Below are positions 43,235-43,329 of a stretch of DNA of 64,000 nt, in pieces. Each line of letters opens with the position of its first letter. Position 1 is the first letter of the stretch. This DNA comes from Escherichia coli (lineage in GTDB: Bacteria > Pseudomonadota > Gammaproteobacteria > Enterobacterales > Enterobacteriaceae): the NCBI RefSeq assembly GCF_045037415.1, contig NZ_CP173438.1, one strand, 5' to 3'. The notes under the pieces were generated by a model. The model saw only the letters and a list, made by a program, of their open reading frames with translations, had not been told where the DNA came from and did not search any database. A program made the translations under genes and the position numbers.

Positions 43235-43304
43235 AGATGTTGTTCTGCCAATGTTATGCCGCTGCACCCTCAACTTACGTTATCCCAACTTGTGACTGTT
43301 ATTC

Positions 43305-43329
43305 GGCGCTCCACGGAGCGCCTTTTTTT
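43305..43329 (+). terminator. rho-independent terminator after malG (overlaps psiE stop)
   Basis: GGCGCTCCACGGAGCGCC hairpin + T7. Confidence 0.65.

Follow-up and report, generated by a model that had tools for sequence, protein, structure and literature searches.

Adjacent malG and psiE genes without xylE in an ST131-type Escherichia coli probably represent the ancestral state

We found that the malG and psiE genes are directly adjacent in the window, the 64-kb stretch of Escherichia coli DNA analysed here, without the xylose/proton symporter gene xylE between them. The window likely keeps an ancestral empty site at this position and K-12 a derived insertion, because the two genes are also adjacent in outgroups and because xylE carriers form a derived clade in a tree built from the flanking sequence. 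In the window strain, xylE was probably absent from the start and not lost later. An earlier note on this stretch had spoken of an absence of xylE; insofar as that word implies a loss, it was not borne out by the outgroups and the flank tree, which favour an empty ancestral site and an insertion in K-12.

The open reading frame list, NCBIfam models and the RefSeq annotation of identical genomes placed malG at 42344..43234 on the + strand, where it encodes a 296-aa maltose ABC transporter permease and is the last gene of malEFG. By the same kinds of evidence, psiE lies at 43328..43738 on the - strand, convergent with malG, and encodes a phosphate-starvation-inducible inner-membrane protein of 136 aa. 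Both products gave full-length equivalog matches (MalG, NF008231, 609.9 bits; PsiE, NF002767, 288.9 bits). The gene ends read earlier from the sequence, 43234 for malG and 43328 for psiE, were confirmed, and the spacer between them measures 93 bp (43235..43327). There is no XylE open reading frame in this interval of only 93 bp, and a tblastn search of the 64-kb window with K-12 XylE as the query returned no homologue (best E = 1.4). Together, the short spacer and the lack of a tblastn match confirm that xylE is missing from the malG-psiE interval.

A terminator scan identified one terminator-like site in the spacer, on the + strand: the hairpin GGCGCTC-CACG-GAGCGCC (43305..43322), which serves malEFG and MalH, the small RNA described below. 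It has seven pairs, six of them G-C, and a 4-nt loop, and is followed by seven Ts at 43323..43329. The stem was present in both the minimum-free-energy and the centroid structures, and the combination of a GC-rich stem-loop with a U-tract is that of an intrinsic terminator. On the - strand, the scan called no terminator in the spacer; the hairpin is followed there by AAUAACAGUCAC / AAUAACAGUCACAAG, with no U-tract. Judged by its sequence, the hairpin is thus predicted to be a canonical intrinsic terminator for malG only, not for psiE. The bidirectional terminators of convergent genes likewise consist of one GC-rich hairpin between the genes, beside both stop codons, but the hairpin in the window differs from them in having a T-run on the + (malG) side only. 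Of the "single shared hairpin terminator" proposed earlier, "single" therefore stands, this being the sole terminator-like site in the spacer, and "shared" does not. K-12 is analogous, in that psiE faces the hairpin of the xylE terminator, again without a U-tract on the psiE side. The psiE stop codon (TAA, - strand, 43328..43330) overlaps the T-run and is made up of its last Ts and the next A; comparison with the K-12 junctions showed that the seven Ts and this A (43323..43330) are the empty insertion point. In Klebsiella, Raoultella, Lelliottia and Kosakonia, a different self-complementary stem (GCGGCC...GGCCGC) occupies the same position. Further along the window, at 43887..43900 on the - strand and upstream of the psiE promoter region, we observed another terminator-like hairpin, CACCTGAATGGGTG followed by ATTTTTTT, which is kept in K-12 and may end transcription arriving from the yjbEFGH side.

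The spacer had also been described as about 90 bp occupied by the terminator. The size was right, but the hairpin and T-run fill only about 25 of the 93 bp; the interval is more than a terminator because it holds the conserved malG 3′ UTR from which the MalH sRNA derives. For strain MG1655, Iosub et al. [quoted passage not shown] Because the window is identical to K-12 throughout the corresponding span, it encodes the same MalH at about 43226..43329 on the + strand. The 5′ end is approximate, since we derived it from the published length of 104 nt, measured from the T-run's end; the resulting segment spans the last 6 sense nt of malG, the stop codon, the 3′ UTR, the hairpin and the seven Ts. 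Our identification of this putative sRNA is based on the description in PMC8081044 and on sequence identity, and the RNase E processing, Hfq association and targets of MalH would be expected to hold in the window strain. With the same sequence as in MG1655, the segment agrees with the definition of MalH as a malG 3′ UTR-derived sRNA; its context differs, with the psiE stop codon downstream in the window and the xylE promoter region in K-12. MalH is intact with or without xylE because the xylE cassette lies downstream of the T-run.

An alignment of 21 taxa revealed near-invariant blocks of the malG 3′ UTR (GCCACTGC, CCCTCAAC and ACTTGTGACTGT) across Enterobacteriaceae. Outside the terminator, the predicted fold of this UTR was unremarkable (z = -0.74), and an Rfam scan of 43000..44300 gave no match at E <= 1, although Rfam 15 may have no MalH family. 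As a separate observation, insertions of 100-250 bp lie inside the malG 3′ UTR in K. oxytoca (L040, about 5905..6160), Lelliottia (L020), Kosakonia (L024) and Raoultella (L011). They resemble ERIC/IRU-type repeats (GTGACTGGGGTGAGCG...) and are located between the malG stop codon and the conserved MalH blocks; any MalH precursor made in those species would be longer or otherwise changed.

On a K-12-lineage chromosome (O16:H48, locus L001), xylE is annotated between malG and psiE, and the gene order given in the earlier note is correct. When we aligned the window to the K-12 malG-psiE interval, the two genes were not adjacent in K-12, where 1797 bp absent from the window separate the malG T-run from the psiE stop codon. 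The malG 3′ UTR and terminator of K-12 are 100% identical to those of the window, and from 43049 to 43359 there are zero mismatches with the K-12-lineage genome, the indel itself aside. At the protein level, the products of the genes that flank xylE in K-12 (psiE-xylE-malG, b4030-b4032) are identical in window-matching genomes (MalG, WP_001252058.1; PsiE, WP_000202902.1). The cassette corresponds to L001 4131..5927, exactly 1797 bp, and contains a 276-bp AT-rich upstream/promoter region, the 1476 bp of xylE and xylE's own terminator. Its left junction in K-12 reads ...GGAGCGCC TTTTTTT CTTTCGTC..., that is, GAGCGCC TTTTTTT and then CTTTCG, and its right junction reads ...GGCGTGCTGAC TTTTT ACTCCCGC..., with GCTGAC preceding TTTTT; the junction in the window is ...GGAGCGCC TTTTTTT ACTCCCGC... 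Terminator T-runs thus bound the cassette on both sides and give a 5-nt TTTTT microhomology, and it is at the T-run (query positions 626-630) that the BLAST matches of cassette-bearing genomes split.

These junctions can also be read the other way round. If xylE were ancestral, either in E. coli or in Escherichia, Citrobacter and Klebsiella together, the window lineage would have lost the cassette between the malG and xylE terminator T-runs, and parallel deletions would have occurred elsewhere. The flanking 5-nt T-run direct repeats suit such a loss, as recombination or slippage there gives exactly the junction observed. Because a deletion between the two T-runs would recreate the same junction, its identity alone is no proof of ancestry, and the choice between gain and loss is taken up below with the evidence from other genomes.

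We detected no signature of mobility in the cassette: there was no transposase or integrase and there were no terminal inverted repeats, and short repeats occurred at chance level. With xylE as the sole gene and the 5-nt T-run as the sole flanking repeat, the segment does not qualify as a mobile element or genomic island. Its GC content is mildly lower (49.6% in xylE versus 54.5% in malG). We also considered, and rejected, a relic of the psiE 3′ end at the left end of the K-12 cassette (local alignment score of 14 versus a shuffle mean of 14.3). The window also departs from K-12 at a second place, roughly 85 bp upstream of where psiE starts (window 43824..43878, compared with L001 6422..6530). 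K-12 has about 110 bp with REP/BIME-like palindromes there (GCCGGATAAG...GCATCCGGCA), annotated as a 47-aa hypothetical protein; in its place, the window shows about 55 bp of unrelated sequence. This polymorphism and that of xylE are not strictly linked, because SB0258h1, an empty-site genome, has the K-12-type version upstream of psiE.

To place the window among other E. coli, we surveyed 5426 complete RefSeq genomes, 5425 of which gave any match. The uninterrupted malG-psiE junction was present in 1786 of the 5426 genomes and the 1797-bp segment in 3639, which together account for the 5425. Sensitive blastn recovered the xylE coding sequence from 3638 genomes, in none of them below 95% identity, and detected no diverged or relocated xylE in the empty-site genomes of the complete E. 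coli set. Since the number of cassette-bearing genomes equals the number with a split junction and since no match fell below 95% identity, empty-site genomes lack xylE anywhere. The search for xylE elsewhere that had been suggested earlier thus came back empty, both in the 64-kb window and in the empty-site genomes. Relocation of xylE to another chromosomal site or to a plasmid in empty-junction strains, for which we found no support beyond one plasmid-borne copy somewhere in the collection, is rejected as scarcely credible on these results: the 3639 cassette genomes are exactly those with a split junction (5425 - 1786), the blastn matches in 3638 genomes are all at 95% identity or above, and the window has no tblastn match. 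An assembly or sequencing artefact, such as a collapsed region, is just as implausible and was likewise rejected, because 1786 complete genomes, each assembled independently, show the identical junction, as do other species.

Accordingly, about one in three complete E. coli genomes lacks xylE, ST131, SMS-3-5 and ST69 among them. Over 24 kb, the window is 100% identical to many O25b:H4-ST131 genomes, and the empty junction was also found in SMS-3-5 and in an O15:H18 ST69 strain; genomes that carry xylE include K-12, LY180, O157:H7 and O55:H7. We take these strains to belong to phylogroups B2 (ST131), F (SMS-3-5), D (ST69), A (K-12), B1 (LY180) and E (O157:H7 and O55:H7). The polymorphism is a clean one, with 1786 empty and 3639 occupied sites, as the earlier note had said; its description as a strain-level difference needs correcting, because the difference is one between phylogroups, not a peculiarity of one strain. 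A previous study reported that the xylE, bgl and mng transporters are enriched in a B1/A sublineage of E. coli (PMC6896753), with which the absence of xylE from the B2, F and D genomes here is consistent. Beyond that study, we found xylE also in phylogroup E (O157:H7 and O55:H7) and defined the insertion point, cassette size and outgroup state at the nucleotide level. The xylE polymorphism is thus common, phylogroup-level and already recognised in outline; our literature search for xylE absence in ExPEC, Nissle or ST131 surfaced no relevant paper.

For the ancestral state, we examined the best 80 MalG loci among GTDB species representatives and located MalG, XylE and PsiE in each; this sample was without E. 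fergusonii, Salmonella, Shigella and other cryptic clades. Within it, malG and psiE are adjacent without xylE in E. albertii, in Escherichia sp. MOD1-EC7003 (a cryptic lineage) and in at least about 50 other Enterobacterales species. Only 1-3 positions distinguish the spacers of E. albertii and MOD1-EC7003 from that of the window: one or two lie in the hairpin loop, and E. albertii has one additional 3′ UTR substitution. Adjacency without xylE is usual in C. koseri, Enterobacter, Kluyvera, Superficieibacter, Pluralibacter, Phytobacter, Kosakonia and Raoultella, and it reaches Yersinia, Serratia, Hafnia and Edwardsiella. The same hairpin, T-run and overlapping psiE stop codon recur in C. koseri, Enterobacter, Superficieibacter, Pluralibacter and Phytobacter. 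XylE homologues are patchy across Enterobacterales and beyond. We observed a third arrangement of the neighbourhood in Entomohabitans teleogrylli (L044 5889..9135), in which xylE, with a product 88% identical to the E. coli protein, lies beyond psiE and an extra LysM-like ORF lies between malG and psiE.

We then built a neighbour-joining tree from 2.6 kb of flanking sequence, possibly recombining, of a dozen genomes, rooted with E. albertii. The xylE carriers K-12, LY180, CFSAN027350 and O157:H7 formed one derived clade, and the empty-site genomes (B2, F, D-like and SB0258h1) branched below them together with MOD1-EC7003, as a basal, paraphyletic group. On this tree, the distribution requires one gain or at least four clean losses. 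An ancestral xylE would accordingly call for at least four independent and equally precise deletions within Escherichia (E. albertii, MOD1-EC7003, B2/F and D), and for many more across the family, given that distant Enterobacterales also have malG next to psiE. No remnant of xylE was seen in any empty-site genome examined, and the real losses that we did see are imprecise and IS1-mediated. In PCN061 (L084 3283..4283), an IS1-flanked deletion takes xylE, psiE and yjbE-H down to pgi and spares 280 bp of the xylE upstream region as a promoter stub. Several carrier genomes have IS1 inside xylE (hits H31, H66 and H156).

Among the loci listed, five species of the Citrobacter freundii complex, as well as K. 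oxytoca, also have xylE between malG and psiE. The shared cassette site speaks for loss from an ancestral state, as does the finding that synonymous divergence (dS) of xylE equals that of the flanking genes; such parity with malG would also be expected of an old, vertically inherited gene that was lost repeatedly. Between E. coli and the C. freundii complex or K. oxytoca, dS was 1.08-1.28 for xylE and 0.90-1.08 for malG. Because the two match, xylE was not recently imported from the sampled Citrobacter or Klebsiella, and we rejected a recent import from either genus (dS of about 1.1-1.3, equal to the flanks). In K. oxytoca, ATTCGCGTTTCAG stands between the malG T-run and the cassette and matches the psiE 3′ end at 15/16 positions; such a repeat flanks the cassette in this species only. 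This relic of an empty junction indicates that the cassette was inserted into an empty site there, and its retention upstream of the K. oxytoca cassette argues against an ancestral xylE. Weighing these points, we consider loss in the window lineage unlikely.

A further reading is neither a single recent gain nor a simple loss. The cassette could be an old cross-species presence/absence polymorphism at one fixed nucleotide position, between the MalH terminator T-run and the psiE stop codon. Homologous recombination through the highly conserved malG/MalH and psiE flanks would keep it, or repeatedly exchange it, among Escherichia, the C. freundii complex and K. oxytoca. If true, this would explain why the divergence of xylE equals that of its flanks despite its patchy distribution within genera. 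We put this forward tentatively, as a rather doubtful possibility.

In the history that we favour, that of an ancestral empty site, the ST131-type (B2) window would retain the enterobacterial arrangement, in which malG and psiE are convergent and directly adjacent. Only the malG 3′ UTR separates them, comprising MalH and a Rho-independent terminator whose T-run overlaps the psiE stop codon. The 1797-bp xylE cassette would most likely have entered in a single event, in the stem lineage of phylogroups A, B1 and E. In either state, MalH and the malEFG terminator are left intact by the cassette.

Two neighbouring loci in the window also drew our attention. The yjbH gene (44278..46374) contains an in-frame TAG at codon 213 (Trp to stop; 45736..45738, - strand); over 7.2 kb, nothing else distinguishes the window from strain SK1144 (T at 45737 versus C). 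In RefSeq, the yjbH of an identical O25b:H4-ST131 genome is labelled a pseudogene ("internal stop"). Given the internal stop and this annotation, this lineage probably has a defective yjbEFGH exopolysaccharide operon. At about 53870..59590, in the rluF-pepE interval, lies a sorbose-type PTS operon comprising a sugar-binding regulator, an SDR oxidoreductase, PTS IIA/IIB/IIC/IID and sorE (L-sorbose-1-phosphate reductase). We presume that K-12 lacks this operon; if so, it is another presence/absence difference in sugar utilisation within the window.

Nothing here would surprise specialists, and the difference is an ordinary one in accessory genes. Because K-12 is most likely the derived state, comparisons against K-12 should not score the absence of xylE as a deletion. 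Annotation of the malG-psiE spacer should name the MalH sRNA instead of an anonymous terminator. As part of the accessory genome of E. coli, xylE is missing from, among others, the pandemic ST131 clone. For this reason, metabolic models based on K-12, and engineering assumptions of two xylose transporters, are not transferable to phylogroups B2, D and F. Without xylE, xylose uptake would depend on the XylFGH ABC transporter, which is presumably the only xylose transporter available to B2, D and F strains.
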